A DNA stretch of 64,000 nt from positions 67,766,001-67,830,000 of the forward strand of contig OZ024746.1 in NCBI GenBank assembly GCA_964016885.1, in the 5' to 3' direction. A model generated the notes under the pieces. That model made no database searches and was not told the origin of the DNA. It saw only the letters and a program-made list of their open reading frames with translations. A program made the translations under genes and the position numbers. Source of the DNA: Eledone cirrhosa (Eukaryota). Position 1 is the first letter of the stretch, and each line of letters opens with the position of its first letter. Shown here piece by piece: positions 8,847-52,511 of the stretch.

Positions 8847-8904
8847 ACACCTGATGAGGTCACCAGGTTCTTACGCAACCTGGCCACTGAAATGTGCATA
8901 GTGT
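8847..8904 (+). ncRNA. Type I hammerhead ribozyme, solitary
   Basis: ACAC-CUGAUGA-GGU.CA.CCAGGUU(cuuacgc)AACCUGG.CC.ACU-GAAA-UGUGCA-UA^-GUGU. Helix III is near-palindromic and helix I has only 4 bp. Confidence 0.6.
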
Positions 8905-11900
8905 TTATAGTAATAAAAAAAATTAAGGAAATTCAACATATTTGGCCTCCTGTCATTTCACTTTATGATATTTATATTTATATATAACTATAAAATTCCA
9001 CTTACAAGGCATTAGTCACTTGAGGGTACAGTAGAAGACACATACCCAAGATACTGTTGGGTCAAATCTGAAACCTTATAGTTGCAAAGCAAATTTCTTC
9101 ACCATATGGCTACACCTGTACATATGTTTATAAGTATTAAGTAAAATATGAAATAGATAGAAATAATATAAAAAATATATTACTAAGCAACCTTGAATAG
9201 AATACCTTGCTGATACATTCCTATCAATACCACGTCAACTTCATTGCAAACATTTAGACATGACCTCTGGTCTGAGACTAGCATATATCTTCATAAGTCG
9301 CTTCTAACTCGAACTTGCTATAAATCATGATCCCCCCCCCCCCCTTGTATCCACCATGTTATAGGGGTCCTGCAAAGACTCCAGGTGTATTCTTCTTACT
9401 CTGCTATGTGTTAGGACAATGTATGTGAAGAAGAATTCTGTAAAATTCAGATATGATATATGGAAAGCTTATATTTTATTTAGAGATTTATTACTACATA
9501 GTTATTTATAGAGATATGACTACCTACTAAAGCTTTCTGAATGCTGTGTCTAGAAATCGTTTAAAATGCTTCACTAAATATCATAACATACTTCTTTAGA
9601 GGTATAAATTACTTCCTTAGAAAACTGAAATCTTTCACAATGAAATCTAGATATTTTGTGAAAACAAACTCGACTTGCCAGACACCCAAATGTTTTCCAA
9701 TTCAGGAACACAGTTAGTTATTTCTATTTTCGTAAAGCACAACATTAGTAATAAGACTGACAATGTAAGAATTAAAACACCTATAATTTTTCTCTTGACT
9801 TTTGTTTAGAACACTGATTTTTGAGACAGATTCCGTTCTTTTATGCTGTTTCTTTCCTTATTGATCAAGCAAGTTATGATGGATGGACTGCATTACTATA
9901 TAATTTTCATCAATTGCTGACAAAAGATGATGGCTTGGCTGGCTGAATAACCTCTGACTTGTCATAAATCTATTGTGAGATTTCAAATTAAGTTGATTCA
10001 GGGCACCTTTAGAAATATCTTATTTCATATTTATTTCCTATTTGCTGGTATGTTCAGTTACCATTCATATTAGGTTTGGTTTGGTTATTGTTGTCCCTGA
10101 AAGTGTTGTTAATGACTATAATATATTTATTCTACTCACCAGAATTCATATTAATACCAAAGCCATCAAATATAGAAAATATTCTGTTTGATTCAGAACA
10201 GTGTAACCTATTTTCTTTCTTTTGAAAGCTGGTCAATAATATATTCCATATCTTTGCAATCATGGCAGTACAAAGTAAAAGAAAAGAAAACTTTTTCCTT
10301 TGATTAATATGTCGCTATAGAATTTGAAAATGGCTTAATTCTAATTTGTCAAACATACAATTTGTAATTACAAAAGTAAGAAGTTATTATATAGAAGACC
10401 ATATAGGTAATGTGGTACTAATTTTATTTTTAAATATATATTGATTTTATTTACATATATATTTGAATTGCTGTTCTTCAAATAATTTGTGAACTTTTAC
10501 TGATTTTGTAATATTGCAGTGTCCTTTGCATGTAAATCCATTGTTGATTCTACTTTAAGAAACCTTTTAAATGCGATACTATAGAAATACATTGAAGATT
10601 AAGCAAGAAAGTAAATAATGCTCAATTAAGTTTTTTTCTTTGTTTTTTTTAAAATCTCCCCTCTTGCTTTTGTATCAGTGTATTACAGTATTATATTTAT
10701 TCATAACATATGTATTTTGCAGGAGTGAGTAAGATTTATTGTAGGTTGTTTGTTCCCTGTAGTGGGAGTTATGATGAGTGAAGTTAAGACAATATGTTAG
10801 GCAGAGTCCATAGTAAGTGATACATGTGTGTATGTCTCAGTGAGAAAAATGTAGATTGTGATGCTTACCAGGGTCGATGAAACCAGTAGCCATAGTCGCT
10901 AGCTGCAGTGATGTGATATTGCCATGTTCCCCCATTACATTGCTGTGAAGTGTACAATTAACCTAAACTGCCAAATAATTTTTTTTTTTTGTTTGTTGAC
11001 ATGATTCATGCCAGAACCTTGTAAAAAATAGAAGACACAACAAATTGGTTGAAGTAATGTAAGTTTGTGTGTTGTTAGTGCATTATAAATTGTATTGGAA
11101 ATGAATGCAGAAATTCTGAATAAACTAACCTTCAATGAAATTTGGTAGATCTGGCTGGCTAGTATCTGTAGTAGTCTGCCAGTGAGTGTTCTGCCTAGAG
11201 CCTCAGATTTTCCTATGTATAAGGTCTGTGATATGACAGTTTCAAACACTAAAATGTATAGCAAAATCCTTACATATTGTTCTCATTGAAAGGAAATGTT
11301 TAACTACTGTTGAATTCACTGAGGTTATAGTTCAGTATGTTGGTGGGTTATAACAAATGTACCATTGCTTGCATCTTTGGGATTAATTCATAATCCCATT
11401 GCCATTAACAGAATATCTTTATGTATTTTATGAAGTGTATTAGACATTATTATCCAAAATAATTTAGTTTAACATTCATCAATGTTGATTATAATCATCC
11501 CCACCTCCATATTTTACTATATCATCTTTACAAATACAGATACATCAGGCACCATTCAATTTCACTTTATTGCCAAATTTTGCCAGGTTGTTTCGTTTTG
11601 TTTTGTGTCTTTTATGATACTTAAAATGAAAATTTACCCATTATTTATTATATACACAATGAAATAATCATTTTACCTACATAAACTGTAAAAATTACTT
11701 GTCATTTAACGTTTCACACTCTAGTTTTATAAATGAAAGAATCAAATCCCTCCCCTTCTCATTTTTCTCTACAGACTGACATCAAACAGCAGCATGACTA
11801 GTAAAATAAACCACTTTTTATTTGGGTAGTTCTAATCAACAGCCATACAGAATTATCATTCCTGTTATTCAGTTGACTGGGCTTTTATTTAGCAGCTTTG

Positions 11901-14074: not shown

Positions 14075-14434
14075 CATATATAAAAGTATATGTAAATATA
14101 AATGTATAAAAGTATATGTAAATATAAATGTATAAAAGTATATGTAAATATAAATGTATATATATATATGTATATATGTACATATATATGTATAAATGTA
14201 TATATATATATGTATATATGTACATATATATGTATATATGTACATATATATATATATGTATATATGTACATGTATATATATATATGTATATATGTACATG
14301 TATATATATATGTATATATATATGTGTATATGTACATGTATATATATATGTATATATATATGTGTATATGTACATGTATATATATGTATATATATGTATA
14401 ATTATGTATATATATATATATCTATATATATGTG
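14075..14434. repeat. (TA)n/(TATG) microsatellite, left flank of the array
   Basis: Direct reading of the sequence. Confidence 0.95.
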
Positions 14435-17400
14435 AAAACAAATAACGAAACGAAATTAAATTTCGTTTCGTTTGTAACTCACTTTTGTATGACTGACGCT
14501 TAAACAATTAAGTTAAAAATGTACATCCACATATGTATACTGAAATACTAGTATGCATATGAATACACACACGTGTACATATGTAGATGTACCGAGTTTT
14601 CACTGGTCACTTTACTGTGAGTGTCCAGCTATTCCGTATGTAGACACACAGACAAACCGGTTCTTAGAGTCATACTGGTTTTTGAGGAAACACCTTTCCT
14701 CTATTCTCCAGAAAGCCAGACAAGGAATATTGGACTAGTTTCGATGTTGTTACATCTCATCAGCAATATTTACCTATCTTCCGGCTTCTCTAGAGAATCG
14801 TGAAAGCACATATCGTTATATGCTTTTTCTATGAAAATTAGTAGTGGGCAGACCAATTTGCATAGAGCGTGAGTACGTACCGGTTCAACGGAGACGATAA
14901 AAACAAATAACGAAACGAAATTAAATTTCGTTTCGTTTGTAACTCACTTTTGTATGACTGACGCTTAAACAATTAAGTTAAAAATGTACATCCACATATG
15001 TATACTGAAATACTAGTATGCATATGAATACACACACGTGTACATATGTAGATGTACCGAGTTTTCACTGGTCACTTTACTGTGAGTGTCCAGCTATTCC
15101 GTATGTAGACACACAGACAAACCGGTTCTTAGAGTCATACTGGTTTTTGAGGAAACACCTTTCCTCTATTCTCCAGAAAGCCAGACAAGGAATATTGGAC
15201 TAGTTTCGATGTTGTTACATCTCATCAGCAATATTTACCTATCTTCCGGCTTCTCTAGAGAATCGTGAAAGCACATATCGTTATATGCTTTTTCTATGAA
15301 AATTAGTAGTGGGCAGACCAATTTGCATAGAGCGTGAGTACGTACCGGTTCAACGGAGACGATAAAAACAAATAACGAAACGAAATTAAATTTCGTTTCG
15401 TTTGTAACTCACTTTTGTATGACTGACGCTTAAACAATTAAGTTAAAAATGTACATCCACATATGTATACTGAAATACTAGTATGCATATGAATACACAC
15501 ACGTGTACATATGTAGATGTACCGAGTTTTCACTGGTCACTTTACTGTGAGTGTCCAGCTATTCCGTATGTAGACACACAGACAAACCGGTTCTTAGAGT
15601 CATACTGGTTTTTGAGGAAACACCTTTCCTCTATTCTCCAGAAAGCCAGACAAGGAATATTGGACTAGTTTCGATGTTGTTACATCTCATCAGCAATATT
15701 TACCTATCTTCCGGCTTCTCTAGAGAATCGTGAAAGCACATATCGTTATATGCTTTTTCTATGAAAATTAGTAGTGGGCAGACCAATTTGCATAGAGCGT
15801 GAGTACGTACCGGTTCAACGGAGACGATAAAAACAAATAACGAAACGAAATTAAATTTCGTTTCGTTTGTAACTCACTTTTGTATGACTGACGCTTAAAC
15901 AATTAAGTTAAAAATGTACATCCACATATGTATACTGAAATACTAGTATGCATATGAATACACACACGTGTACATATGTAGATGTACCGAGTTTTCACTG
16001 GTCACTTTACTGTGAGTGTCCAGCTATTCCGTATGTAGACACACAGACAAACCGGTTCTTAGAGTCATACTGGTTTTTGAGGAAACACCTTTCCTCTATT
16101 CTCCAGAAAGCCAGACAAGGAATATTGGACTAGTTTCGATGTTGTTACATCTCATCAGCAATATTTACCTATCTTCCGGCTTCTCTAGAGAATCGTGAAA
16201 GCACATATCGTTATATGCTTTTTCTATGAAAATTAGTAGTGGGCAGACCAATTTGCATAGAGCGTGAGTACGTACCGGTTCAACGGAGACGATAAAAACA
16301 AATAACGAAACGAAATTAAATTTCGTTTCGTTTGTAACTCACTTTTGTATGACTGACGCTTAAACAATTAAGTTAAAAATGTACATCCACATATGTATAC
16401 TGAAATACTAGTATGCATATGAATACACACACGTGTACATATGTAGATGTACCGAGTTTTCACTGGTCACTTTACTGTGAGTGTCCAGCTATTCCGTATG
16501 TAGACACACAGACAAACCGGTTCTTAGAGTCATACTGGTTTTTGAGGAAACACCTTTCCTCTATTCTCCAGAAAGCCAGACAAGGAATATTGGACTAGTT
16601 TCGATGTTGTTACATCTCATCAGCAATATTTACCTATCTTCCGGCTTCTCTAGAGAATCGTGAAAGCACATATCGTTATATGCTTTTTCTATGAAAATTA
16701 GTAGTGGGCAGACCAATTTGCATAGAGCGTGAGTACGTACCGGTTCAACGGAGACGATAAAAACAAATAACGAAACGAAATTAAATTTCGTTTCGTTTGT
16801 AACTCACTTTTGTATGACTGACGCTTAAACAATTAAGTTAAAAATGTACATCCACATATGTATACTGAAATACTAGTATGCATATGAATACACACACGTG
16901 TACATATGTAGATGTACCGAGTTTTCACTGGTCACTTTACTGTGAGTGTCCAGCTATTCCGTATGTAGACACACAGACAAACCGGTTCTTAGAGTCATAC
17001 TGGTTTTTGAGGAAACACCTTTCCTCTATTCTCCAGAAAGCCAGACAAGGAATATTGGACTAGTTTCGATGTTGTTACATCTCATCAGCAATATTTACCT
17101 ATCTTCCGGCTTCTCTAGAGAATCGTGAAAGCACATATCGTTATATGCTTTTTCTATGAAAATTAGTAGTGGGCAGACCAATTTGCATAGAGCGTGAGTA
17201 CGTACCGGTTCAACGGAGACGATAAAAACAAATAACGAAACGAAATTAAATTTCGTTTCGTTTGTAACTCACTTTTGTATGACTGACGCTTAAACAATTA
17301 AGTTAAAAATGTACATCCACATATGTATACTGAAATACTAGTATGCATATGAATACACACACGTGTACATATGTAGATGTACCGAGTTTTCACTGGTCAC

Positions 17401-19435
17401 TTTACTGTGAGTGTCCAGCTATTCCGTATGTAGACACACAGACAAACCGGTTCTTAGAGTCATACTGGTTTTTGAGGAAACACCTTTCCTCTATTCTCCA
17501 GAAAGCCAGACAAGGAATATTGGACTAGTTTCGATGTTGTTACATCTCATCAGCAATATTTACCTATCTTCCGGCTTCTCTAGAGAATCGTGAAAGCACA
17601 TATCGTTATATGCTTTTTCTATGAAAATTAGTAGTGGGCAGACCAATTTGCATAGAGCGTGAGTACGTACCGGTTCAACGGAGACGATAAAAACAAATAA
17701 CGAAACGAAATTAAATTTCGTTTCGTTTGTAACTCACTTTTGTATGACTGACGCTTAAACAATTAAGTTAAAAATGTACATCCACATATGTATACTGAAA
17801 TACTAGTATGCATATGAATACACACACGTGTACATATGTAGATGTACCGAGTTTTCACTGGTCACTTTACTGTGAGTGTCCAGCTATTCCGTATGTAGAC
17901 ACACAGACAAACCGGTTCTTAGAGTCATACTGGTTTTTGAGGAAACACCTTTCCTCTATTCTCCAGAAAGCCAGACAAGGAATATTGGACTAGTTTCGAT
18001 GTTGTTACATCTCATCAGCAATATTTACCTATCTTCCGGCTTCTCTAGAGAATCGTGAAAGCACATATCGTTATATGCTTTTTCTATGAAAATTAGTAGT
18101 GGGCAGACCAATTTGCATAGAGCGTGAGTACGTACCGGTTCAACGGAGACGATAAAAACAAATAACGAAACGAAATTAAATTTCGTTTCGTTTGTAACTC
18201 ACTTTTGTATGACTGACGCTTAAACAATTAAGTTAAAAATGTACATCCACATATGTATACTGAAATACTAGTATGCATATGAATACACACACGTGTACAT
18301 ATGTAGATGTACCGAGTTTTCACTGGTCACTTTACTGTGAGTGTCCAGCTATTCCGTATGTAGACACACAGACAAACCGGTTCTTAGAGTCATACTGGTT
18401 TTTGAGGAAACACCTTTCCTCTATTCTCCAGAAAGCCAGACAAGGAATATTGGACTAGTTTCGATGTTGTTACATCTCATCAGCAATATTTACCTATCTT
18501 CCGGCTTCTCTAGAGAATCGTGAAAGCACATATCGTTATATGCTTTTTCTATGAAAATTAGTAGTGGGCAGACCAATTTGCATAGAGCGTGAGTACGTAC
18601 CGGTTCAACGGAGACGATAAAAACAAATAACGAAACGAAATTAAATTTCGTTTCGTTTGTAACTCACTTTTGTATGACTGACGCTTAAACAATTAAGTTA
18701 AAAATGTACATCCACATATGTATACTGAAATACTAGTATGCATATGAATACACACACGTGTACATATGTAGATGTACCGAGTTTTCACTGGTCACTTTAC
18801 TGTGAGTGTCCAGCTATTCCGTATGTAGACACACAGACAAACCGGTTCTTAGAGTCATACTGGTTTTTGAGGAAACACCTTTCCTCTATTCTCCAGAAAG
18901 CCAGACAAGGAATATTGGACTAGTTTCGATGTTGTTACATCTCATCAGCAATATTTACCTATCTTCCGGCTTCTCTAGAGAATCGTGAAAGCACATATCG
19001 TTATATGCTTTTTCTATGAAAATTAGTAGTGGGCAGACCAATTTGCATAGAGCGTGAGTACGTACCGGTTCAACGGAGACGATAAAAACAAATAACGAAA
19101 CGAAATTAAATTTCGTTTCGTTTGTAACTCACTTTTGTATGACTGACGCTTAAACAATTAAGTTAAAAATGTACATCCACATATGTATACTGAAATACTA
19201 GTATGCATATGAATACACACACGTGTACATATGTAGATGTACCGAGTTTTCACTGGTCACTTTACTGTGAGTGTCCAGCTATTCCGTATGTAGACACACA
19301 GACAAACCGGTTCTTAGAGTCATACTGGTTTTTGAGGAAACACCTTTCCTCTATTCTCCAGAAAGCCAGACAAGGAATATTGGACTAGTTTCGATGTTGT
19401 TACATCTCATCAGCAATATTTACCTATCTTCCGGC
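14435..19435 (-). repeat. 465-bp hammerhead tandem array, left block (10.75 units, ribozymes on the minus strand)
   Basis: Exact 465-bp periodicity, also visible as ORF-track repeats every 465 bp. No variants were seen between these units. Confidence 0.97.
14726..14770 (-). ncRNA. Type I hammerhead ribozyme, first of 11 minus-strand copies (every 465 bp to 19376-19420)
   Basis: Reverse complement is AAUAUUG CUGAUGA GAUGU AACA ACAUC GAAA C UA G UC CAAUAUU; every conserved core nucleotide is present. Confidence 0.92.
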
Positions 19436-19439
19436 CTAG

Positions 19440-22400
19440 TTGTCTGGCTTTCTGGAGAATAGAGGAAAGGTGTTTCCTCAAAAACCAGTATGACTCTAAG
19501 AACCGGTTTGTCTGTGTGTCTACATACGGAATAGCTGGACACTCACAGTAAAGTGACCAGTGAAAACTCGGTACATCTACATATGTACACGTGTGTGTAT
19601 TCATATGCATACTAGTATTTCAGTATACATATGTGGATGTACATTTTTAACTTAATTGTTTAAGCGTCAGTCATACAAAAGTGAGTTACAAACGAAACGA
19701 AATTTAATTTCGTTTCGTTATTTGTTTTTATCGTCTCCGTTGAACCGGTACGTACTCACGCTCTATGCAAATTGGTCTGCCCACTACTAATTTTCATAGA
19801 AAAAGCATATAACGATATGTGCTTTCACGATTCTCTAGAGAAGCCGGAAGATAGGTAAATATTGCTGATGAGATGTAACAACATCGAAACTAGTCCAATA
19901 TTCCTTGTCTGGCTTTCTGGAGAATAGAGGAAAGGTGTTTCCTCAAAAACCAGTATGACTCTAAGAACCGGTTTGTCTGTGTGTCTACATACGGAATAGC
20001 TGGACACTCACAGTAAAGTGACCAGTGAAAACTCGGTACATCTACATATGTACACGTGTGTGTATTCATATGCATACTAGTATTTCAGTATACATATGTG
20101 GATGTACATTTTTAACTTAATTGTTTAAGCGTCAGTCATACAAAAGTGAGTTACAAACGAAACGAAATTTAATTTCGTTTCGTTATTTGTTTTTATCGTC
20201 TCCGTTGAACCGGTACGTACTCACGCTCTATGCAAATTGGTCTGCCCACTACTAATTTTCATAGAAAAAGCATATAACGATATGTGCTTTCACGATTCTC
20301 TAGAGAAGCCGGAAGATAGGTAAATATTGCTGATGAGATGTAACAACATCGAAACTAGTCCAATATTCCTTGTCTGGCTTTCTGGAGAATAGAGGAAAGG
20401 TGTTTCCTCAAAAACCAGTATGACTCTAAGAACCGGTTTGTCTGTGTGTCTACATACGGAATAGCTGGACACTCACAGTAAAGTGACCAGTGAAAACTCG
20501 GTACATCTACATATGTACACGTGTGTGTATTCATATGCATACTAGTATTTCAGTATACATATGTGGATGTACATTTTTAACTTAATTGTTTAAGCGTCAG
20601 TCATACAAAAGTGAGTTACAAACGAAACGAAATTTAATTTCGTTTCGTTATTTGTTTTTATCGTCTCCGTTGAACCGGTACGTACTCACGCTCTATGCAA
20701 ATTGGTCTGCCCACTACTAATTTTCATAGAAAAAGCATATAACGATATGTGCTTTCACGATTCTCTAGAGAAGCCGGAAGATAGGTAAATATTGCTGATG
20801 AGATGTAACAACATCGAAACTAGTCCAATATTCCTTGTCTGGCTTTCTGGAGAATAGAGGAAAGGTGTTTCCTCAAAAACCAGTATGACTCTAAGAACCG
20901 GTTTGTCTGTGTGTCTACATACGGAATAGCTGGACACTCACAGTAAAGTGACCAGTGAAAACTCGGTACATCTACATATGTACACGTGTGTGTATTCATA
21001 TGCATACTAGTATTTCAGTATACATATGTGGATGTACATTTTTAACTTAATTGTTTAAGCGTCAGTCATACAAAAGTGAGTTACAAACGAAACGAAATTT
21101 AATTTCGTTTCGTTATTTGTTTTTATCGTCTCCGTTGAACCGGTACGTACTCACGCTCTATGCAAATTGGTCTGCCCACTACTAATTTTCATAGAAAAAG
21201 CATATAACGATATGTGCTTTCACGATTCTCTAGAGAAGCCGGAAGATAGGTAAATATTGCTGATGAGATGTAACAACATCGAAACTAGTCCAATATTCCT
21301 TGTCTGGCTTTCTGGAGAATAGAGGAAAGGTGTTTCCTCAAAAACCAGTATGACTCTAAGAACCGGTTTGTCTGTGTGTCTACATACGGAATAGCTGGAC
21401 ACTCACAGTAAAGTGACCAGTGAAAACTCGGTACATCTACATATGTACACGTGTGTGTATTCATATGCATACTAGTATTTCAGTATACATATGTGGATGT
21501 ACATTTTTAACTTAATTGTTTAAGCGTCAGTCATACAAAAGTGAGTTACAAACGAAACGAAATTTAATTTCGTTTCGTTATTTGTTTTTATCGTCTCCGT
21601 TGAACCGGTACGTACTCACGCTCTATGCAAATTGGTCTGCCCACTACTAATTTTCATAGAAAAAGCATATAACGATATGTGCTTTCACGATTCTCTAGAG
21701 AAGCCGGAAGATAGGTAAATATTGCTGATGAGATGTAACAACATCGAAACTAGTCCAATATTCCTTGTCTGGCTTTCTGGAGAATAGAGGAAAGGTGTTT
21801 CCTCAAAAACCAGTATGACTCTAAGAACCGGTTTGTCTGTGTGTCTACATACGGAATAGCTGGACACTCACAGTAAAGTGACCAGTGAAAACTCGGTACA
21901 TCTACATATGTACACGTGTGTGTATTCATATGCATACTAGTATTTCAGTATACATATGTGGATGTACATTTTTAACTTAATTGTTTAAGCGTCAGTCATA
22001 CAAAAGTGAGTTACAAACGAAACGAAATTTAATTTCGTTTCGTTATTTGTTTTTATCGTCTCCGTTGAACCGGTACGTACTCACGCTCTATGCAAATTGG
22101 TCTGCCCACTACTAATTTTCATAGAAAAAGCATATAACGATATGTGCTTTCACGATTCTCTAGAGAAGCCGGAAGATAGGTAAATATTGCTGATGAGATG
22201 TAACAACATCGAAACTAGTCCAATATTCCTTGTCTGGCTTTCTGGAGAATAGAGGAAAGGTGTTTCCTCAAAAACCAGTATGACTCTAAGAACCGGTTTG
22301 TCTGTGTGTCTACATACGGAATAGCTGGACACTCACAGTAAAGTGACCAGTGAAAACTCGGTACATCTACATATGTACACGTGTGTGTATTCATATGCAT

Positions 22401-25400
22401 ACTAGTATTTCAGTATACATATGTGGATGTACATTTTTAACTTAATTGTTTAAGCGTCAGTCATACAAAAGTGAGTTACAAACGAAACGAAATTTAATTT
22501 CGTTTCGTTATTTGTTTTTATCGTCTCCGTTGAACCGGTACGTACTCACGCTCTATGCAAATTGGTCTGCCCACTACTAATTTTCATAGAAAAAGCATAT
22601 AACGATATGTGCTTTCACGATTCTCTAGAGAAGCCGGAAGATAGGTAAATATTGCTGATGAGATGTAACAACATCGAAACTAGTCCAATATTCCTTGTCT
22701 GGCTTTCTGGAGAATAGAGGAAAGGTGTTTCCTCAAAAACCAGTATGACTCTAAGAACCGGTTTGTCTGTGTGTCTACATACGGAATAGCTGGACACTCA
22801 CAGTAAAGTGACCAGTGAAAACTCGGTACATCTACATATGTACACGTGTGTGTATTCATATGCATACTAGTATTTCAGTATACATATGTGGATGTACATT
22901 TTTAACTTAATTGTTTAAGCGTCAGTCATACAAAAGTGAGTTACAAACGAAACGAAATTTAATTTCGTTTCGTTATTTGTTTTTATCGTCTCCGTTGAAC
23001 CGGTACGTACTCACGCTCTATGCAAATTGGTCTGCCCACTACTAATTTTCATAGAAAAAGCATATAACGATATGTGCTTTCACGATTCTCTAGAGAAGCC
23101 GGAAGATAGGTAAATATTGCTGATGAGATGTAACAACATCGAAACTAGTCCAATATTCCTTGTCTGGCTTTCTGGAGAATAGAGGAAAGGTGTTTCCTCA
23201 AAAACCAGTATGACTCTAAGAACCGGTTTGTCTGTGTGTCTACATACGGAATAGCTGGACACTCACAGTAAAGTGACCAGTGAAAACTCGGTACATCTAC
23301 ATATGTACACGTGTGTGTATTCATATGCATACTAGTATTTCAGTATACATATGTGGATGTACATTTTTAACTTAATTGTTTAAGCGTCAGTCATACAAAA
23401 GTGAGTTACAAACGAAACGAAATTTAATTTCGTTTCGTTATTTGTTTTTATCGTCTCCGTTGAACCGGTACGTACTCACGCTCTATGCAAATTGGTCTGC
23501 CCACTACTAATTTTCATAGAAAAAGCATATAACGATATGTGCTTTCACGATTCTCTAGAGAAGCCGGAAGATAGGTAAATATTGCTGATGAGATGTAACA
23601 ACATCGAAACTAGTCCAATATTCCTTGTCTGGCTTTCTGGAGAATAGAGGAAAGGTGTTTCCTCAAAAACCAGTATGACTCTAAGAACCGGTTTGTCTGT
23701 GTGTCTACATACGGAATAGCTGGACACTCACAGTAAAGTGACCAGTGAAAACTCGGTACATCTACATATGTACACGTGTGTGTATTCATATGCATACTAG
23801 TATTTCAGTATACATATGTGGATGTACATTTTTAACTTAATTGTTTAAGCGTCAGTCATACAAAAGTGAGTTACAAACGAAACGAAATTTAATTTCGTTT
23901 CGTTATTTGTTTTTATCGTCTCCGTTGAACCGGTACGTACTCACGCTCTATGCAAATTGGTCTGCCCACTACTAATTTTCATAGAAAAAGCATATAACGA
24001 TATGTGCTTTCACGATTCTCTAGAGAAGCCGGAAGATAGGTAAATATTGCTGATGAGATGTAACAACATCGAAACTAGTCCAATATTCCTTGTCTGGCTT
24101 TCTGGAGAATAGAGGAAAGGTGTTTCCTCAAAAACCAGTATGACTCTAAGAACCGGTTTGTCTGTGTGTCTACATACGGAATAGCTGGACACTCACAGTA
24201 AAGTGACCAGTGAAAACTCGGTACATCTACATATGTACACGTGTGTGTATTCATATGCATACTAGTATTTCAGTATACATATGTGGATGTACATTTTTAA
24301 CTTAATTGTTTAAGCGTCAGTCATACAAAAGTGAGTTACAAACGAAACGAAATTTAATTTCGTTTCGTTATTTGTTTTTATCGTCTCCGTTGAACCGGTA
24401 CGTACTCACGCTCTATGCAAATTGGTCTGCCCACTACTAATTTTCATAGAAAAAGCATATAACGATATGTGCTTTCACGATTCTCTAGAGAAGCCGGAAG
24501 ATAGGTAAATATTGCTGATGAGATGTAACAACATCGAAACTAGTCCAATATTCCTTGTCTGGCTTTCTGGAGAATAGAGGAAAGGTGTTTCCTCAAAAAC
24601 CAGTATGACTCTAAGAACCGGTTTGTCTGTGTGTCTACATACGGAATAGCTGGACACTCACAGTAAAGTGACCAGTGAAAACTCGGTACATCTACATATG
24701 TACACGTGTGTGTATTCATATGCATACTAGTATTTCAGTATACATATGTGGATGTACATTTTTAACTTAATTGTTTAAGCGTCAGTCATACAAAAGTGAG
24801 TTACAAACGAAACGAAATTTAATTTCGTTTCGTTATTTGTTTTTATCGTCTCCGTTGAACCGGTACGTACTCACGCTCTATGCAAATTGGTCTGCCCACT
24901 ACTAATTTTCATAGAAAAAGCATATAACGATATGTGCTTTCACGATTCTCTAGAGAAGCCGGAAGATAGGTAAATATTGCTGATGAGATGTAACAACATC
25001 GAAACTAGTCCAATATTCCTTGTCTGGCTTTCTGGAGAATAGAGGAAAGGTGTTTCCTCAAAAACCAGTATGACTCTAAGAACCGGTTTGTCTGTGTGTC
25101 TACATACGGAATAGCTGGACACTCACAGTAAAGTGACCAGTGAAAACTCGGTACATCTACATATGTACACGTGTGTGTATTCATATGCATACTAGTATTT
25201 CAGTATACATATGTGGATGTACATTTTTAACTTAATTGTTTAAGCGTCAGTCATACAAAAGTGAGTTACAAACGAAACGAAATTTAATTTCGTTTCGTTA
25301 TTTGTTTTTATCGTCTCCGTTGAACCGGTACGTACTCACGCTCTATGCAAATTGGTCTGCCCACTACTAATTTTCATAGAAAAAGCATATAACGATATGT

Positions 25401-28400
25401 GCTTTCACGATTCTCTAGAGAAGCCGGAAGATAGGTAAATATTGCTGATGAGATGTAACAACATCGAAACTAGTCCAATATTCCTTGTCTGGCTTTCTGG
25501 AGAATAGAGGAAAGGTGTTTCCTCAAAAACCAGTATGACTCTAAGAACCGGTTTGTCTGTGTGTCTACATACGGAATAGCTGGACACTCACAGTAAAGTG
25601 ACCAGTGAAAACTCGGTACATCTACATATGTACACGTGTGTGTATTCATATGCATACTAGTATTTCAGTATACATATGTGGATGTACATTTTTAACTTAA
25701 TTGTTTAAGCGTCAGTCATACAAAAGTGAGTTACAAACGAAACGAAATTTAATTTCGTTTCGTTATTTGTTTTTATCGTCTCCGTTGAACCGGTACGTAC
25801 TCACGCTCTATGCAAATTGGTCTGCCCACTACTAATTTTCATAGAAAAAGCATATAACGATATGTGCTTTCACGATTCTCTAGAGAAGCCGGAAGATAGG
25901 TAAATATTGCTGATGAGATGTAACAACATCGAAACTAGTCCAATATTCCTTGTCTGGCTTTCTGGAGAATAGAGGAAAGGTGTTTCCTCAAAAACCAGTA
26001 TGACTCTAAGAACCGGTTTGTCTGCGTGTCTACATACGGAATAGCTGGACACTCACAGTAAAGTGACCAGTGAAAACTCGGTACATCTACATATGTACAC
26101 GTGTGTGTATTCATATGCATACTAGTATTTCAGTATACATATGTGGATGTACATTTTTAACTTAATTGTTTAAGCGTCAGTCATACAAAAGTGAGTTACA
26201 AACGAAACGAAATTTAATTTCGTTTCGTTATTTGTTTTTATCGTCTCCGTTGAACCGGTACGTACTCACGCTCTATGCAAATTGGTCTGCCCACTACTAA
26301 TTTTCATAGAAAAAGCATATAACGATATGTGCTTTCACGATTCTCTAGAGAAGCCGGAAGATAGGTAAATATTGCTGATGAGATGTAACAACATCGAAAC
26401 TAGTCCAATATTCCTTGTCTGGCTTTCTGGAGAATAGAGGAAAGGTGTTTCCTCAAAAACCAGTATGACTCTAAGAACCGGTTTGTCTGTGTGTCTACAT
26501 ACGGAATAGCTGGACACTCACAGTAAAGTGACCAGTGAAAACTCGGTACATCTACATATGTACACGTGTGTGTATTCATATGCATACTAGTATTTCAGTA
26601 TACATATGTGGATGTACATTTTTAACTTAATTGTTTAAGCGTCAGTCATACAAAAGTGAGTTACAAACGAAACGAAATTTAATTTCGTTTCGTTATTTGT
26701 TTTTATCGTCTCCGTTGAACCGGTACGTACTCACGCTCTATGCAAATTGGTCTGCCCACTACTAATTTTCATAGAAAAAGCATATAACGATATGTGCTTT
26801 CACGATTCTCTAGAGAAGCCGGAAGATAGGTAAATATTGCTGATGAGATGTAACAACATCGAAACTAGTCCAATATTCCTTGTCTGGCTTTCTGGAGAAT
26901 AGAGGAAAAGTGTTTCCTCAAAAACCAGTATGACTCTAAGAACCGGTTTGTCTGTGTGTCTACATACGGAATAGCTGGACACTCACAGTAAAGTGACCAG
27001 TGAAAACTCGGTACATCTACATATGTACACGTGTGTGTATTCATATGCATACTAGTATTTCAGTATACATATGTGGATGTACATTTTTAACTTAATTGTT
27101 TAAGCGTCAGTCATACAAAAGTGAGTTACAAACGAAACGAAATTTAATTTCGTTTCGTTATTTGTTTTTATCGTCTCCGTTGAACCGGTACGTACTCACG
27201 CTCTATGCAAATTGGTCTGCCCACTACTAATTTTCATAGAAAAAGCATATAACGATATGTGCTTTCACGATTCTCTAGAGAAGCCGGAAGATAGGTAAAT
27301 ATTGCTGATGAGATGTAACAACATCGAAACTAGTCCAATATTCCTTGTCTGGCTTTCTGGAGAATAGAGGAAAGGTGTTTCCTCAAAAACCAGTATGACT
27401 CTAAGAACCGGTTTGTCTGTGTGTCTACATACGGAATAGCTGGACACTCACAGTAAAGTGACCAGTGAAAACTCGGTACATCTACATATGTACACGTGTG
27501 TGTATTCATATGCATACTAGTATTTCAGTATACATATGTGGATGTACATTTTTAACTTAATTGTTTAAGCGTCAGTCATACAAAAGTGAGTTACAAACGA
27601 AACGAAATTTAATTTCGTTTCGTTATTTGTTTTTATCGTCTCCGTTGAACCGGTACGTACTCACGCTCTATGCAAATTGGTCTGCCCACTACTAATTTTC
27701 ATAGAAAAAGCATATAACGATATGTGCTTTCACGATTCTCTAGAGAAGCCGGAAGATAGGTAAATATTGCTGATGAGATGTAACAACATCGAAACTAGTC
27801 CAATATTCCTTGTCTGGCTTTCTGGAGAATAGAGGAAAGGTGTTTCCTCAAAAACCAGTATGACTCTAAGAACCGGTTTGTCTGTGTGTCTACATACGGA
27901 ATAGCTGGACACTCACAGTAAAGTGACCAGTGAAAACTCGGTACATCTACATATGTACACGTGTGTGTATTCATATGCATACTAGTATTTCAGTATACAT
28001 ATGTGGATGTACATTTTTAACTTAATTGTTTAAGCGTCAGTCATACAAAAGTGAGTTACAAACGAAACGAAATTTAATTTCGTTTCGTTATTTGTTTTTA
28101 TCGTCTCCGTTGAACCGGTACGTACTCACGCTCTATGCAAATTGGTCTGCCCACTACTAATTTTCATAGAAAAAGCATATAACGATATGTGCTTTCACGA
28201 TTCTCTAGAGAAGCCGGAAGATAGGTAAATATTGCTGATGAGATGTAACAACATCGAAACTAGTCCAATATTCCTTGTCTGGCTTTCTGGAGAATAGAGG
28301 AAAGGTGTTTCCTCAAAAACCAGTATGACTCTAAGAACCGGTTTGTCTGTGTGTCTACATACGGAATAGCTGGACACTCACAGTAAAGTGACCAGTGAAA

Positions 28401-28957
28401 ACTCGGTACATCTACATATGTACACGTGTGTGTATTCATATGCATACTAGTATTTCAGTATACATATGTGGATGTACATTTTTAACTTAATTGTTTAAGC
28501 GTCAGTCATACAAAAGTGAGTTACAAACGAAACGAAATTTAATTTCGTTTCGTTATTTGTTTTTATCGTCTCCGTTGAACCGGTACGTACTCACGCTCTA
28601 TGCAAATTGGTCTGCCCACTACTAATTTTCATAGAAAAAGCATATAACGATATGTGCTTTCACGATTCTCTAGAGAAGCCGGAAGATAGGTAAATATTGC
28701 TGATGAGATGTAACAACATCGAAACTAGTCCAATATTCCTTGTCTGGCTTTCTGGAGAATAGAGGAAAGGTGTTTCCTCAAAAACCAGTATGACTCTAAG
28801 AACCGGTTTGTCTGTGTGTCTACATACGGAATAGCTGGACACTCACAGTAAAGTGACCAGTGAAAACTCGGTACATCTACATATGTACACGTGTGTGTAT
28901 TCATATGCATACTAGTATTTCAGTATACATATGTGGATGTACATTTTTAACTTAATT
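19440..28957 (+). repeat. 465-bp hammerhead tandem array, right inverted block (about 20.5 units, ribozymes on the plus strand)
   Basis: Reverse complement of the left block. Only two substitutions were noticed (26025 T>C and 26909 G>A). Confidence 0.97.
19858..19902 (+). ncRNA. Type I hammerhead ribozyme, first of 20 plus-strand copies (every 465 bp to 28693-28737); predicted cleavage after C19895
   Basis: Helix I AAUAUUG/CAAUAUU; core CUGAUGA at 19865-19871; helix II GAUGU-AACA-ACAUC; GAAA at 19886-19889; helix III ACUAGU; GUC triplet. Confidence 0.92.
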
Positions 28958-29012
28958 ATATATATGTGTATGTACATATATATATATATATATATCTATA
29001 TATATGTGTATG

Positions 29013-29050
<38 letters not shown>

Positions 29051-29080
29051 CATGTATATGGATATATGTATATATATATA
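28958..29080. repeat. (TA)n/(TATG) microsatellite, right flank of the array
   Basis: Direct reading of the sequence. Confidence 0.95.
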
Positions 29081-29206
29081 ATGTAGGAGGTGAGTTTTAT
29101 TGTAGTACAATAAAGCAATGCAGATATCGGATAAGAAGCACTCTACAGTTTGTAGGACTGGAGTATACATAATATAAGATCAAAAGATGGTTAAAGGAGT
29201 TCCATG

Positions 29207-29274
29207 TATTTTATTATGCGCATTTCAAAAACAAACATCATGCAATAATATTTGTGTTTTCATCAGATAAAACA
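29207..29274 (-). ncRNA. Type I hammerhead ribozyme, left arm
   Basis: Minus strand reads UGUUUUAU-CUGAUGA-AAACACAAAUAU..AUGUUUGUUUUU-GAAA-UGCGCA-UA^-AUAAAAUA. Confidence 0.8.
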
Positions 29275-29455
29275 GGAGAACATGATATGAAGGCTAAAAA
29301 ACACTTGTGGGTAGTGCAGTTTTAAATCAACATGAAACAGGAGAACATGATATGAAGGCTAAAAAACACTTGTGGATAGTGCAGTTTTAAATCAACATGT
29401 TGATTTAAAACTGCACTACCCACAAGTGTTTTTTAGCCTTCATATCATGTTCTCC

Positions 29456-29526
29456 TGTTTTATCTGATGAAAACACAAATATTATTGCATGATGATGTTT
29501 GTTTTTGAAATGCGCATAATAAAATA
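29456..29526 (+). ncRNA. Type I hammerhead ribozyme, right arm; predicted cleavage after A29518
   Basis: UGUUUUAU-CUGAUGA-(helix II 29471-29506)-GAAA-UGCGCA-UA^-AUAAAAUA, with palindromic helix III AUGCGCAU. Confidence 0.8.
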
Positions 29527-29589
29527 CATGGAACTCCTTTAACCATCTTTTGATCTTATATTATGTATATATATATATATATGTACATG

Positions 29590-31300: not shown

Positions 31301-35215
<3,915 letters not shown>

Positions 35216-40477: not shown

Positions 40478-40628
40478 TACGACTGGGTACTGAGACAACT
40501 ACTAGACAGCTCACATGTGGACGTGATATATCTTGACTTTGCGAAGGCCTTTGGACAAGGTCGACCACGGAATGATATGTCACAAACTACACGGATTCGG
40601 CATAACTGGAAAAGTAGGTGAGTGGCTG
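40478..40628 (+). mobile_element. CR1-like LINE RT fragment
   Basis: VDVIYLDFAKAF/DKVDH..HKL..FGITGKVGEWL, with a frameshift. Confidence 0.7.
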
Positions 40629-41574
40629 TAGGGGGTTGTATCGATGAACATTACACCCATAGAGGTGAATTAGCTTACAAATTTAGAAGGGCCTTAGATA
40701 AACATAAACTCAATATTAAGATAGTAGAAAGACCAGGTACCTCCTTAAAAACACTTATTAGCAAGACATCCTCTTTTCAAAGACCCTCATGTATAGATAA
40801 GAAATGTATAACCTGTAAAATAAGCCCCTATATTAACTGTAAAACTAGAAATGTAGTGTATAGCATAAGATGTACTAAAGGACAATGTAGTGACAAAAAT
40901 ATAGTGTACATAGGTGAGACAGCGCGTAGTGTAGGGGAACGGATAAATGAACACTGGCGAGACCTTCAAGATAGTAAAGAATCATTTGCACTCTACCAAC
41001 ATGCTAAAATAGAACACAAGGGTAAATTAGAGAACATAGAAATAAAAATAGAATCTACACACAGAAAACACGCAATGTTTAGACAAATCACATAGGCAAT
41101 AAATATAAAAGAATTACAACCAAAATTAAATAGAAAATATGAGTGGAACAGCAACATCACAACTTACAATTAAGGACAAAATGAAAACACACACACACAT
41201 AGAACAAACAACCAACCAGTAACATGTAAATAAATAAACAAATAAATAAATGAACATAAACACACACAGACTCCCGGATGTGGCGCATACGCAGACTGAG
41301 CACACAACACACACACAGAAACAAAATGGCGTAGGACAGAACAAAGGAGAGGCACAGAAACAAAGAAAGGAATCCCCAGTCACTGAAGAGGTCACAGAGT
41401 GTGTGACAAAAGAACTATGACAATATATAAACAGCTATCTGGTTGTGGAACCAACCAACCAACCAGAAATTTATAAATTTATAAATTTATTATAAATTTA
41501 TTATAATAAATTGAAGTGAAAGCAACTGGTGCGTGTGTTTCTTATTGGCAACATGACCCTCCCAAAGTATAACA

Positions 41575-41575
<1 letters not shown>
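40626..41575 (+). mobile_element. Penelope-like element 3' part (GIY-YIG ORF plus pLTR)
   Basis: ORF 40622-41095 reads C..C..C...CKTRNVVYSIRCTKGQC...VYIGETARSVGERINEH...ALYQH. A degenerate hammerhead lies at 41379-41421 (GUCA-CUGAAGA-..-AAAA-..-UGAC), and the element ends in (TA)n. Confidence 0.85.
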
Positions 41576-41610
<35 letters not shown>

Positions 41611-41611
41611 G

Positions 41612-41660
<49 letters not shown>

Positions 41661-41661
41661 G

Positions 41662-41861
<200 letters not shown>

Positions 41862-41867
41862 CATATG

Positions 41868-41899
<32 letters not shown>

Positions 41900-42100
41900 C
41901 ATATATATATATATGTATATATATATACATATATATATATATGTATATATATATATGTATATATATATACATATATATATATATGTATATATATATACAT
42001 ATATATATATATGTATATATATATACATATATATATATACATATATATATATATATGTATATATATATATGTATATATATATGTATGTATATATATATAT

Positions 42101-43324
42101 TGATTTCAGCAAGTCCTTTGTCAGGGTTGATCACAACATTCTACTGAGAAAGCTGTCCAATATTGGTGTCACTGGAAGGCTGCTGCAGTGGATCAAGTGC
42201 TTCCTGTCAAACAGAACCCAACATGTTGTAGTTGAAGGAGTCAAATCCAGCCCAGCCAAAGTCAGTAGTGGGGTCCCACAAGGCACTGTGTTGGGCCCAC
42301 TTCTCTTCATCATCTATATTAATGACATCACTGACATCATCAAACACAGCAACATTAGAATTTTTGCTGATGATTCCAAGCTCCAAAAGGTCATCAATGG
42401 CGTGGATGACCGGATAAGCCTTCAGTCAGTCCTACTGGCTGTTACCCAATGGGCGGAAAAGAACAACATGTTACTGAACGAAGAGAAATTCGAACTGATC
42501 CACTTTGGAAAAGAGGATGCTCTGAAACTCCCATACTCCCTTCCCTCCCGTGAAACTCTCATGGCATCTAACAACATCAGAGACTTGGGAGTAACCGTGA
42601 ACAGCAACATAAGCTGGGCCACGCATATAAGCAGCAAAGTTGACATGGTCCGCAGAATGTGTTCCTGGATCCTCAGAACCTTCCAGTCGAGAGATTCCCA
42701 CACCATTATCCTTCTCTTCTCCACTTTTGCCCGACCACACCTTGAATACTGTTGTCCACTGTGGTCTCCCCACAGGAAACAAAGTATCATGAAACTTGAA
42801 GCTCCCCAAAGGGCAATCACGAAAAAGATAGATGGCATGTCAGACCTTGGGGTCGACTAGAAAAGCTGAAACTTTACTCACTCCAACGTCGCCGTGAGCG
42901 TTATATTATCTGCATGATGTGGAAAATGTTTCATCAGCACTGCCCAAATGATGTTGGCATCACCTTCAAAATACACCCAAGGCTTGGGCCCCGTGCTATC
43001 CATCCCAAACAAAAATCTAAATCGCAACACATAACAACAATACGACACAATTATTTCACCTCAATTGGCCCTGCTCTCTTCAACATCACACCAGGACACG
43101 TCAAAACAGAAACTGACCACACAAAATTCAAGAAGTCTTTGGACAAATTCCTCCAAGTAATCACGGACAAACCACCCGGATATGTCTCCTCAAACAGTAA
43201 TTCTCTTCTCGAATGGGCCATGGTGCCCAAATCCTGAGTTGAAAGACTTCGCCAGGTGGTGCTATTAAGTTAGACATGGCCTGGGCCAATACTGACCAAA
43301 ACATTTCAAAGTTATTCAAAGTTA
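42101..43324 (+). mobile_element. CR1-group LINE, 5'-truncated, inserted in (TA)n
   Basis: [11 protein letters not shown]...[20 protein letters not shown]...IFADDSKL...RDLGV...[13 protein letters not shown], with a frameshift near 42850 and a short caaagtta(tt) 3' repeat. Confidence 0.9.
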
Positions 43325-43579: not shown

Positions 43580-45613
43580 GAAGAGACTTGTGGCTGGAGT
43601 AATCTCCAATGAGACAGATGGTGACCTGGTAGTGGAACAGCATGGTAGGTAGAGCCATTAAAGACAAAAGACAAGGGTGGGGGTAAAGATCGATACTCAG
43701 CCGCTAAAAGAGAGGCTAGATGTCAAGTACACTTAGCACGCAGGGAAGCTGAGAGTAGAATATTTTCCTATGTTCTGCAACTAGAAGATCAGAGATGTGC
43801 GGTGTTCCACATTGCAAGGCAATGTGTCAGTTTAAATCAGGATGTTGTTGAAGATAAGTTTCTTTGAAATTATGCCGGTGTACTTAGAGTCACTGATGCT
43901 GAAAAAAAGGAGGCCTGGAAATGTCATTATGAGAGACTGATGAATGGGAGAGAGAGAAACTGTCCCCAGAAGACCCAACAGAGGTACCAGCTATTGAGAT
44001 TCATGACTATAGGGTCAAAGGCAATTAAGGAAATGAAAAGTGGTAAGGCCACTGGACCATCAGGGATAGTTACTGAGATGCTGAAGGCATCAGAAGTAGG
44101 AACTAAACTGGTTGCAAGCATAGTCAATCAAGCTATATATGGCGGAGTCATACCCAAAGACTGGTGCAGCAGTTATTCTTATAAATTGCTACAAAGGTAA
44201 AGAGGTTGCTCTGTGAAGGAGCAATTATAGGGGCATAAAACTATGGATCAGGTTATGAAAGTGACAGAAAGAATGCTAGCACAATAATTAGAGAAAGGTT
44301 CAAATTAGATGAGATGCAATTTGGTTTTGTGCCAGGGAAAAGTACAACAGAAGCCCTCTTCTTAGGGAGACAACTACAAGAGAGGTTCTTAGAGAAGAAT
44401 AAGCCACTATACTTAGCTTTTGTTGACATAGAAAAGGCCTTTGATAGGGTACACCGATCTGTCATCTGGTGGTCCCTAAGGAAACTAGGTGTAGAGGAAT
44501 GGCTTGTGAGGACAATGCAAGCTATGTACAGAGGAGCTGTCAGTAAAGTGAGAGTAGGAATGGAGTTTAGTGAGGAATTCCAGATACAAGTAGGAGTGTA
44601 TCAGGGTTCGGTCCTCAGCCCACTCTTATTCATTATAGTTCTCCAAGCCATAACAGGAGTTTAAGACTGGCTGCCCATGGGAACTTTTCTATGCTGATGA
44701 TCTGGTACTTATAGCAGAATCAATAGAGGAGCTAGAGAATAAATTCTGGCTATGGAAACAGCAGTTGAAATCAAGAGGACTGAGAGTGAACATAGCTAAG
44801 TAGGAAAGAGGACAAAACTCTGATTCCATCAGGGAAATGGCCATGTTCGATATGTAGAAAAGGAGTTGGCATAAATTCTATAGAATGTACACAATGCAGA
44901 TCTTGGATACACAAGAGGTGGAGTGGGATAGCAGGAAAACTAACAGGTAGAGAAAACTACATATACAGTAGATGTTCAGGGAAATTTGATAGAAGTGACA
45001 ATGATAGAAACATTTTCCAAATGCAGGTAGGATCTAAAGAGGTGGCTGATAGCTTCTGATACCTAGGTGATCAGATTAGCAAGGGAGGACGGTGCTCCGA
45101 GGCCTAGAATAAGGACGGGCTGAAAGAAATTTAGGGTGCTGTTTCCTCTGTTGACAAAGAAGGGTTTCTTCCTATAAAGGAAAGGCCTGTTATATGATAC
45201 CTCTGTGAGATGCCTGATGCTGCATGGTAGTGAGACATGGGCAACAACTGCGGAGAGAAATGAAACGAGCATGTTCCGATGGATGTTAATGTGCGTGAAC
45301 GACCAAGCATAGATTAGTTGAGAGAGAAACTGTAGTGTGCGGGAGAGAAGACTGCATTAGTATGGACATGTGATGTGCATGGAGGATGACCGTTGGGTAA
45401 AGAAGTGCTAAGAAATCCCAGTAGAAGGAAAACGCAGTAGAGGAAGATCACGAATATCATGGGGGGGGGGGGGAGGTGGTGAGAGCTGACCTCAGATTGC
45501 TGAAGCTCACAGAGGAGATGATGAAGGACCATGACAAATGGAGAGATGATGTGCTGAAAAGGACCCGTCCCACCCTTGCAAGCAAGGAAAAGTGGACATA
45601 AAATGATGATGAT
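43580..45613 (+). mobile_element. RTE-clade LINE, degraded
   Basis: MKSGKATGPSGI, QFGFVPGKSTTEA, AFVDIEKAFDRV, QGSVLSPLLF and YADDL are interrupted by many stops; (GAT)n tail. Confidence 0.9.
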
Positions 45614-47792: not shown

Positions 47793-48680
47793 TCAGGGAT
47801 ATTCCAAAGACTTTATAGTCATCAAAAATGTGCGTAGTAAAGACGCCAGACATAAGGCTTGCCTCATTAGAAGCTGCACATGTGGGTCAGTGTTTGGTTT
47901 GCCAGCAGCAGTAAATACTGCCTGAAGAGTATTTTTGAAAGACTGTGCAAGACTACATAATTCTGATCCAAGATGTTGAGATTTTTGCACTGAATTCAAA
48001 GCAACCATAGTCGCATAAGCAAAGAAGAACACTTTTGTGAGAGAATGCATGCATGTACTTAAACTGTTCTGTAGCTTCTCTTTGGTGAGAGCTGCATTGA
48101 TTAGAAAAAACTTTGTATGGTTGATGAATTGCTTGGTTTGAAGATAAAGTTTTCTTTGAGATTCCTCAAAATCATTTTTATTTTTAATACTTTGTAGTTC
48201 ATTAAATTTTTCTAAATCTACTTGCATGTCATTTACAAGAGTTTCAATATCTTTTGATGCCACGGATAAGCTCACTTCTCCACTATAGACTCGACTCAGT
48301 AACTCAGATTTTGATTCAGAAAATTGATTTTCAGGAATGTTTTCTATTGAAGAAAGATCAGTTCCAGTTTGGAAATGAGTGTCACTTTCAAAATTCTGCA
48401 TTTTAAAAGAATCCCATATATGTTTAAATGTGGCATAATGATTCATCCGTGATGGATCCTCTAAATATTGGTTACCACACACAATTGGTTGCCACATATG
48501 TATAGAGCAGATAGGATTGTCTGAAAAATGTTTGCAATTTGCTTCAAATTTATTGGAAGAAGCATTTGTTGCTGTGTTTGCTTCCCTTAAAACTGATGGT
48601 TTTGTCGGTATTCCTGGAATATGCTGTAGGGCTTTCAATGGGCCTGGTTTACAGCTTGTTGTGCTTTGTTTCTGGGATTG
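47793..48680 (-). CDS. Terminal coding exon of a FERM and PDZ domain-containing (FRMPD4/FRMPD1-like) protein, encoding a C-terminal helical domain
   Basis: Acceptor tcttttgcag|CAATCC (phase 0), then 296 codons to TGA. The C-terminus TKQFINHTKFFLINAALTKEKL..SLSTCMHSL...AAGKPNTDPHVQLLMRQALCLASLLRTFLMTIKSLE resembles, from memory, the C-terminus of invertebrate FRMPD4-like proteins. Confidence 0.75.
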   Translation of the reverse strand, partial: QSQKQSTTSCKPGPLKALQHIPGIPTKPSVLREANTATNASSNKFEANCKHFSDNPICSIHMWQPIVCGNQYLEDPSRMNHYATFKHIWDSFKMQNFESDTHFQTGTDLSSIENIPENQFSESKSELLSRVYSGEVSLSVASKDIETLVNDMQVDLEKFNELQSIKNKNDFEESQRKLYLQTKQFINHTKFFLINAALTKEKLQNSLSTCMHSLTKVFFFAYATMVALNSVQKSQHLGSELCSLAQSFKNTLQAVFTAAGKPNTDPHVQLLMRQALCLASLLRTFLMTIKSLEYP

Positions 48681-51982: not shown

Positions 51983-52511
51983 GAATTATCTCACATAATA
52001 TCAAATCTATGAGATTTTGATATTATTTATTGTGACAACAATACCTTACCATCAGTATAAGTGGCTGAGTTAAAGAATGCTCAATGAGTTTGATAGAAAA
52101 ATGTTTGCTTTTCACAAATGCTAGCATGGAAGAATGGACATAAAATGGTGATGATGATTGTAGATTTAAGCAAAGAAACTCTTTTTGAATTTTCTCAATT
52201 AGCAAATATGGATGAAATCCTTTTAACTTTTGTTCTTCCAAGTAATAAAACTATTACTTTTGAGACTATTGGATATTAGAAATGCACTATACAGTGGTAT
52301 TAGCCTATTGTGTAGATGGAACTAAATTATTTCCAATGTTAATATTTTAAAGGAAAACAATGCATAAAGAACATTTATTCAGTTGTATTTATGTTCATGT
52401 GTATGACCAGGGATGTGTAAAGAAGGAATACTTTTTGTTATAAAACCTTTTGGTCTAAACAAACATTAAGGGATTTATTAAAAATGCTTCTCTACTCATC
52501 TGGAATTCATT

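Follow-up and report, generated by a model that had tools for sequence, protein, structure and literature searches.

Divergent two-arm insertions of a 465-bp hammerhead retrozyme in the genome of Eledone cirrhosa

What kind of event produces an array of near-identical ribozyme units that runs in two opposite directions from one internal point? The question is raised by a stretch of 64,000 nucleotides from Eledone cirrhosa (contig OZ024746.1, 67,766,001 to 67,830,000; hereafter the window, with positions counted from its first letter), in which a 465-bp unit carrying a hammerhead ribozyme is repeated on both sides of a short joint. Our preferred reading, with a probability of roughly 0.6, is that the array is one insertion of a non-autonomous retrozyme of the type without long terminal repeats (non-LTR), whose circular monomer was reverse-transcribed by the enzyme of a GIY-YIG Penelope-like element (PLE) off both target strands. 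The retrozyme class, a link to PLEs and a circular template have all been proposed in print before. The value of the present family lies in how its insertions are built, since their anatomy lets a published hypothesis be stated as a prediction testable at the level of single bases. This main feature (the inverted two-arm layout, the two fixed outer ends and their recurrence genome-wide) was absent from the original prediction, made from the sequence of the window.

Tandem Repeats Finder (TRF) reported two 465-bp arrays at 14435-19435 (10.8 copies) and 19440-28957 (20.5 copies). A core scan found the predicted 31 hammerheads, 11 of them in minus and 20 in plus orientation, spaced by exactly 465 nt. 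The 29 full units are identical except for two substitutions, both singletons, and the array is identical to the youngest haplotype of the family, found at young loci on other chromosomes; the array is young, as had been proposed. It also has no coding potential, the longest stop-free frame in a trimer of the unit being 64 codons. The GC content of the unit is about 37%, the predicted fold of the 465-nt monomer has an energy of -156.7 kcal/mol (z -8.6), and the arms are multimeric and not in the dimer layout of LTR-type retrozymes (primer-binding site and polypurine tract had no separate search). Copy numbers carry the caveat that a near-identical array of 14.5 kb may be mis-sized in assembly. 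Unit positions (q) are counted from the predicted cleavage site, with q1 at 19896; RT stands for reverse transcriptase. The features are as follows.

14076 to 14434, unstranded: (TA)-rich target tract, left (TRF)
14423 to 14434, plus: probable 12-bp target-site duplication, left copy, TATATATATGTG (identical 12-mer at 28957-28968)
14435 to 19435, minus: left arm with 11 hammerheads over 5,001 bp; it ends on the inner side at q413 and on the outer side at q298 (site A)
14435 to 14505, minus: "tail", q228-298, at the outer end of the left arm only
19436 to 19439, unstranded: inner joint between the arms, four inserted bases CTAG
19440 to 28957, plus: right arm with 20 hammerheads over 9,518 bp; it ends on the inner side at q10 and on the outer side at q227 (site B)
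19858 to 19902, plus: type I hammerhead, representative copy; predicted cleavage after C19895; helix III is the palindrome ACUAGU
19896 to 20360, plus: predicted 465-nt monomer or circle, q1-q465
20116 to 20129, plus: small hairpin with the putative RT start site B (q224-232), from folds
20156 to 20184, plus: 13-bp hairpin directly 5' of the putative RT start site A, from folds, with a counterpart in a sister family
20193 to 20196, plus: q298-301, putative RT start site A; the element end plus TA recurs exactly 1,952 times in the genome, the reversed control 0 times
20230 to 20237, plus: octamer ATGCAAAT (q335-342), candidate internal promoter element
28957 to 28968, plus: probable 12-bp target-site duplication, right copy
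28957 to 29080, unstranded: (TA)-rich target tract, right (TRF)

The unit contains helix I (AAUAUUG/CAAUAUU), CUGAUGA, helix II (GAUGU-AACA-ACAUC), GAAA and a GUC triplet (19893-19895 in the representative copy). These motifs are as originally described, but the term "complete" type I hammerhead needs correction, since helix III consists of the palindrome ACUAGU only and a stable fold takes two ribozymes. The double hammerhead was calculated at -16.4 kcal/mol, compared with -5.7 kcal/mol for each of two monomers without helix III, and on this model the ribozyme is predicted to be of the dimer-dependent type. A short palindromic helix III is described as the usual form of metazoan type I hammerheads, in which dimers cleave efficiently and monomeric circles are spared (PMC4209133). 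The Rfam check of the window gave nothing at gathering score; Hammerhead_HH9 matched the unit below threshold (38.9 bits, E 3.9e-8, cut-off 52). Rfam matches to microRNAs and small RNAs were dismissed as far below cut-off and tracking AT-rich hairpins. Ribozyme variation was judged on the 14 commonest variants in the examined loci: the core is invariant, the palindrome is retained in 13 of 14 and the triplet is GUC, GUU or GUA. One A-U to U-A double change occurs in helix II (GAUGU/ACAUC to GUUGU/ACAAC), and in sister families both hammerhead helices are swapped for other pairing sequences. Because pairing is kept through double changes while core and palindrome stay fixed, sequence comparison points to selection on the ribozyme fold.

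The genome search proposed with the original prediction found 1,579 exact copies of the 39-nt ribozyme (747 + 832), and a looser ribozyme pattern gave at least 36,415 related hammerheads, sister families included; the reversed control gave 0 in both searches, and chance does not account for the ribozyme. The units of the sister families are 422-538 nt long and 62-64% identical to the 465-bp unit across 330-356 nt. Those at L211, L212, L214 and L099 have a GUA triplet, the two-arm rule described below and the octamer, some with an internal variable (TA)n; families of this type make up many of the listed loose-pattern matches. The array in the window is one retrotransposition event of a dispersed family and not a local satellite. 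A classical satellite forms long local arrays with arbitrary ends; here the ends are fixed and short arrays are dispersed. The label "satellite" was therefore misleading, while the assignment to non-LTR retrozymes held, as the tandem type I hammerhead units are non-coding and dispersed with marks of retrotransposition. The proposed cephalopod host agrees with molluscan haemocyanin domains in the genome (39 matches; 0/14 controls) and with an exon in the window that is 69% identical to a protein of Argonauta hians.

To describe the insertions, 84 loci were mapped: 40 (including the window) through a match to the ribozyme or unit, 38 through one element end and six others. Left out were L134, as part of L215+216, L158, which duplicates L157, and a middle piece of 32 bp in L068. 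Two adjacent arms are present in 61 of the 84 loci and the ribozyme sense diverges in all 61. In 54 of these 61, one outer end falls at q296-303 (A) and its opposite at q222-233 (B); the other seven have a non-standard end, and neither A+A nor B+B occurs among the 61. The A+B rule holds equally in 30 of the 34 two-arm loci among the 40 that were not selected by an end. Of the remaining 23 loci, 21 were scored as one-armed; several run off the examined stretch or show a B stub of 12-20 nt. At least four TA repeats border both junctions in 53 of the 54 A+B loci. Duplications of 12 bp anchored at the junctions can be seen in the window and in L050, L059 and L175; a loose screen for target-site duplications did not rise above its control (10/54 vs 13%). 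Inner ends are scattered round the unit with a mild excess (post hoc) at q1-30 and q249-279, and 17 of the 54 joints carry added bases. Median arm lengths are 615 and 689 bp. The two arm lengths of a locus correlate (rho 0.49, p 0.0002, n=54), with rho 0.58 in 22 loci on C1 picked by ribozyme and 0.29 (p 0.19) in 22 end-chosen loci. In sister retrozyme families the A+B rule was found in 3/3 distinct automatically called loci, plus L211 and L218 by eye, and likewise at B275 and B219. The two-hairpin layout is kept there in different sequence, and one sister family has a hairpin of unlike sequence at its own site B.

This anatomy resembles that of PLEs. Craig et al. (PMC8557442) list as PLE marks an inverted 5'-truncated copy, a tail of 30-40 bp often at one end only and a bias to (TA)n. 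According to Frangieh et al. (PMC11167929), the purified PLE protein of the anole, for which a dimer model was given, cuts and extends both strands; it begins copying at two sites inside the RNA, and these delimit the tail. An autonomous PLE has an open reading frame (ORF) with RT and GIY-YIG domains, which the 465-bp element lacks; the inverted arm, one-sided tail and (TA)n of a non-autonomous PLE are found in 54/61 loci. Protein-coding PLE families in the same genome follow the A+B rule in 10/10 and 5/5 end pairs seen (34 and 35 loci). Their tails measure 89 and 60 nt, compared with about 70-77 nt in the 465-bp element and the 30-40 bp published for PLEs. Mobilisation by a PLE through two-strand priming is thus well supported, and we consider it highly probable.

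We looked for the partner PLE among the elements near at hand. The window carries two truncated GIY-YIG PLE copies, at 32073-33620 (minus) and 40622-41575 (plus), each from a very abundant family that ends in (TA)n and has two fixed ends of its own. The genome is rich in PLEs: the two fragments gave 31,515 and 61,364 first-look candidates. Long PLE ORFs had RT matches in two of three tested and none in one, and a simple motif scan of the terminal regions of both families showed no clear hammerhead. Both families were rejected as the partner: they have long ORFs, yet no similarity to the 465-bp unit. L055 was rejected as well, as the 5.5 kb between its arms consists of an RTE-like long interspersed nuclear element (LINE) and a local inverted duplication, with no PLE. 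The duplication (1972-2769 / 7290-8087 of L055; 798 bp, 99%) includes part of the retrozyme and surrounds the LINE, and an 85-bp tandem repeat lies at 8877-9856. The 780-aa PLE of L210 proved to be merely a neighbour.

On the preferred reading an existing array would be transcribed into a multimer, possibly from an internal promoter of the octamer type; ATGCAAAT was scored in 288 of 344 copies of the 465-bp family and 54 of 81 copies of sister families (copies are not independent). By analogy with published retrozymes, neighbouring hammerheads would pair through ACUAGU and cut after GUC to give 465-nt monomers, and a ligase of the RtcB type would close these to circles. A lone circle is unable to form helix III and would therefore survive. 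A PLE protein, probably a dimer, would nick both strands of (TA)n about 12 bp apart, and copying would be primed by one DNA end at site A (q~301) and by its counterpart at site B (q~227-232), the positions at which the arms end. Both enzymes would copy inward for 0-30 laps around the presumed circle, crossing the cleavage site as the arms do. The complementary DNAs would stop at differing points and join through microhomology or a few added bases, of the kind observed at the joints. A broader version is held more tentatively, at somewhat less than even odds: each insertion may record bidirectional rolling-circle target-primed reverse transcription by a dimeric PLE enzyme, reaching about 15 kb at most from a 465-nt circle with one start site per strand. 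The retrozyme may then be no fragment of a PLE pseudo-LTR (pLTR) but a parasite in its own right, a circular RNA whose structure imitates the start signal of PLEs, and the strict A+B rule may explain the tail and inverted ends of PLEs generally.

What was the template? The cleavage site is crossed by 96 of 108 arms, 296 times in total. Two arms stop at q1-5 (1.1 expected), and no hard RT stop at the cleavage site was found in the 108 arms. As the arms cross the site freely, the template was not cut linear monomers. The alternative that survives best, which we consider unlikely, keeps PLE two-strand priming and replaces the circle by a long uncleaved linear multimer transcribed from a homogeneous young array, the ribozyme freeing 5' ends or being a passenger. 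Variants were compared in 43 informative loci. There, 22 locus-private variants are fixed across all laps of both arms and 202 are singletons; L044, for example, has six identical units that differ from the nearest other locus by 4.9 differences. An aged linear multimer copied twice should leave same-lap donor mutations in both arms. With few mirrored variants and 22 fixed private ones, the data suggest a founder of a single unit, i.e., a circle, although a homogeneous young multimer is also compatible with them. Linear copying cannot extend an array or fix a mutation of one unit everywhere. It would also require transcripts of 9.5-14 kb carrying 20-30 uncut ribozymes, and the maintenance of the helices through double changes speaks against it too. 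In favor of the linear multimer, dimer-dependent hammerheads can be slow (10.64898/2026.07.22.740005), and inner ends at q1-30 number 15 where 6.9 are expected (post hoc).

Several further observations weigh against the circular template or the PLE route to it. Unprocessed RNA was the main in vitro substrate of the anole PLE (PMC11167929), and only one of nine Xenopus retrozyme dimers is reported to have cleaved in vitro (10.64898/2026.07.22.740005). Two variants are mirrored between arms, which a linear multimer would explain, and 30 others are shared without mirroring. The variants called private were judged so against 54 loci, in a family with about 2,000 or more. Joint overlaps of at least 4 nt, in 15/54 loci against 2.2% by chance, speak for the preferred reading, but the figure is BLAST-derived and inflated at hairpins. 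An apparent B+B pair at C1:141066902/141067633 (extending to 141067664) is the sole exception to A+B that we noticed. None of the 70 PLE loci compared, from three families, showed sequence similarity to the unit. Finally, shared variants recur periodically in the old arms of L038, L046 and L215+216. Two sequencing runs gave single contigs of 495 and 496 nt (unit + 30), which a tandem array or a circle would yield alike and which were not used as evidence; none of the 24 runs listed with the sequence is on record as RNA.

The periodic variants, seen also in L061, bear on another explanation, in which a PLE makes short two-arm copies and the long arms, those of the window included, grow later by unequal crossing-over, the route proposed for local expansion of retrozymes (10.64898/2026.07.22.740005). 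DNA-level turnover does build arrays too and reshuffles older ones later, and the medians of just 615 and 689 bp would suit short initial copies. The window fits poorly: its 29 units differ by the two singletons and match the haplotype of young loci on other chromosomes, so that turnover had little time to act. Several young loci have many units in both arms, and the arm lengths correlate (not significantly in the end-selected subset). We regard later growth as quite improbable for these arrays. That the inversion or the copy number is an artefact of assembly or amplification is very improbable: a near-identical repeat of 14.5 kb does approach the length of long reads and none of the contigs examined spans the joint region, but polarity and end rule are shared by 54 loci of differing age on many chromosomes with varied joints, the ends carry a 12-bp duplication, and one short-read run has identical ends against (TA)n plus many different joints.

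With animal non-LTR retrozymes the family shares tandem units that code for no protein and hold a single type I hammerhead, a GC content below 50%, dispersal and co-occurrence with PLEs. The original prediction had called 465 nt unusually long, which does not hold against the range of 51-972 bp that a preprint (Li, Clavereau & Pollet 2026, 10.64898/2026.07.22.740005) gives for animal retrozymes; the range in Cervera & de la Pena 2020 (PMC7229834) is 150-450 bp. The main texts of these two papers describe no divergent two-arm insertions, two fixed starts or tail, and name no cephalopod. In the literature searched (subscription papers, supplements and Repbase/Dfam being outside its scope) we found neither a cephalopod retrozyme nor a two-arm, two-start-site anatomy for retrozymes. 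Circular templates giving more-than-unit complementary DNA were already proposed by Cervera and de la Pena (PMC4209133, PMC7229834). The 2026 preprint, in which no mollusc is described as sampled, ties retrozymes by sequence to the pLTRs of PLEs; for the 465-bp unit, in contrast, no pLTR homology was found in the 70 PLE loci. PLEs with an endonuclease (EN+; Poseidon PAc, PMC11167929; Neptune, Naiad and Hydra, PMC8557442) are described with the same inverted 5'-truncated copy, one-end tail, (TA)n targeting, two internal RT starts, extension of both strands and hammerhead with palindromic helix III, whereas the 465-bp element has no ORF and both of its arms can be many units long. Newt satellite 2 and the axolotl retrozymes share the short-palindrome helix III hammerhead acting as a dimer (PMC4209133, PMC7229834), but their units are about 330 bp and unrelated in sequence. 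A promoter of small nuclear RNA type has been reported for newt satellite 2 (cited in PMC2220036), and the 465-bp unit keeps the octamer as a candidate promoter.

Other features were noted in the window and the mapped loci. A short inverted two-arm element at 29141-29560 lies between TA tracts with a 65-bp tandem inside and CTGATGA...GAAA motifs at 29266 (minus) and about 29465 (plus); its sequence flanks other loci too, and it may be another hammerhead-like non-autonomous PLE derivative. Inverted pairs of CTGA.GA...GAAA followed by TATATA/TATGTA palindromes at L103:2600-3400, L206:2631-3056 and L097 are probably further families of similar kind. Nested clusters arise because retrozymes often sit inside the (TA)n that ends a previous insertion of a PLE or retrozyme (L040, L042, L099, L092, L141). 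L157 and L158 are segmental duplicates of 5 kb, nearly identical and separated by about 17 kb on C1. Two exons at 47793-48659 and 57605-59071 (minus), the last large ones in the gene of a PDZ/FERM/WW protein, include the exon compared with Argonauta above; the coding sequence of this gene stops at about 47.8 kb, roughly 19 kb away from the array. LINE reverse-transcriptase fragments lie at 52421-54148 (plus), 43868-44664, 51479-51985 and 41520-43237, and one LINE frame of 575 aa has an RVT_1 match and a PHD-like finger. At 35.7-35.9 kb a 200-N gap adjoins a degenerate (TA)n tract of 4.6 kb in which short unique inserts are duplicated.

How retrozyme RNA returns to the genome and how tandem, inverted and tailed PLE copies originate are called open questions in PMC7229834, PMC8557442, PMC11167929 and 10.64898/2026.07.22.740005. 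The 465-bp family provides thousands of natural reaction products with start sites at base level, a protein-coding control in the same genome and a test RNA of 465 nt, so that the circle model can be examined directly in the existing in vitro PLE assay. If it is true, a eukaryotic reverse transcriptase would use a small circle to write concatemers of several kilobases at each of the two ends of a break, which would be relevant to RNA-templated DNA writing.

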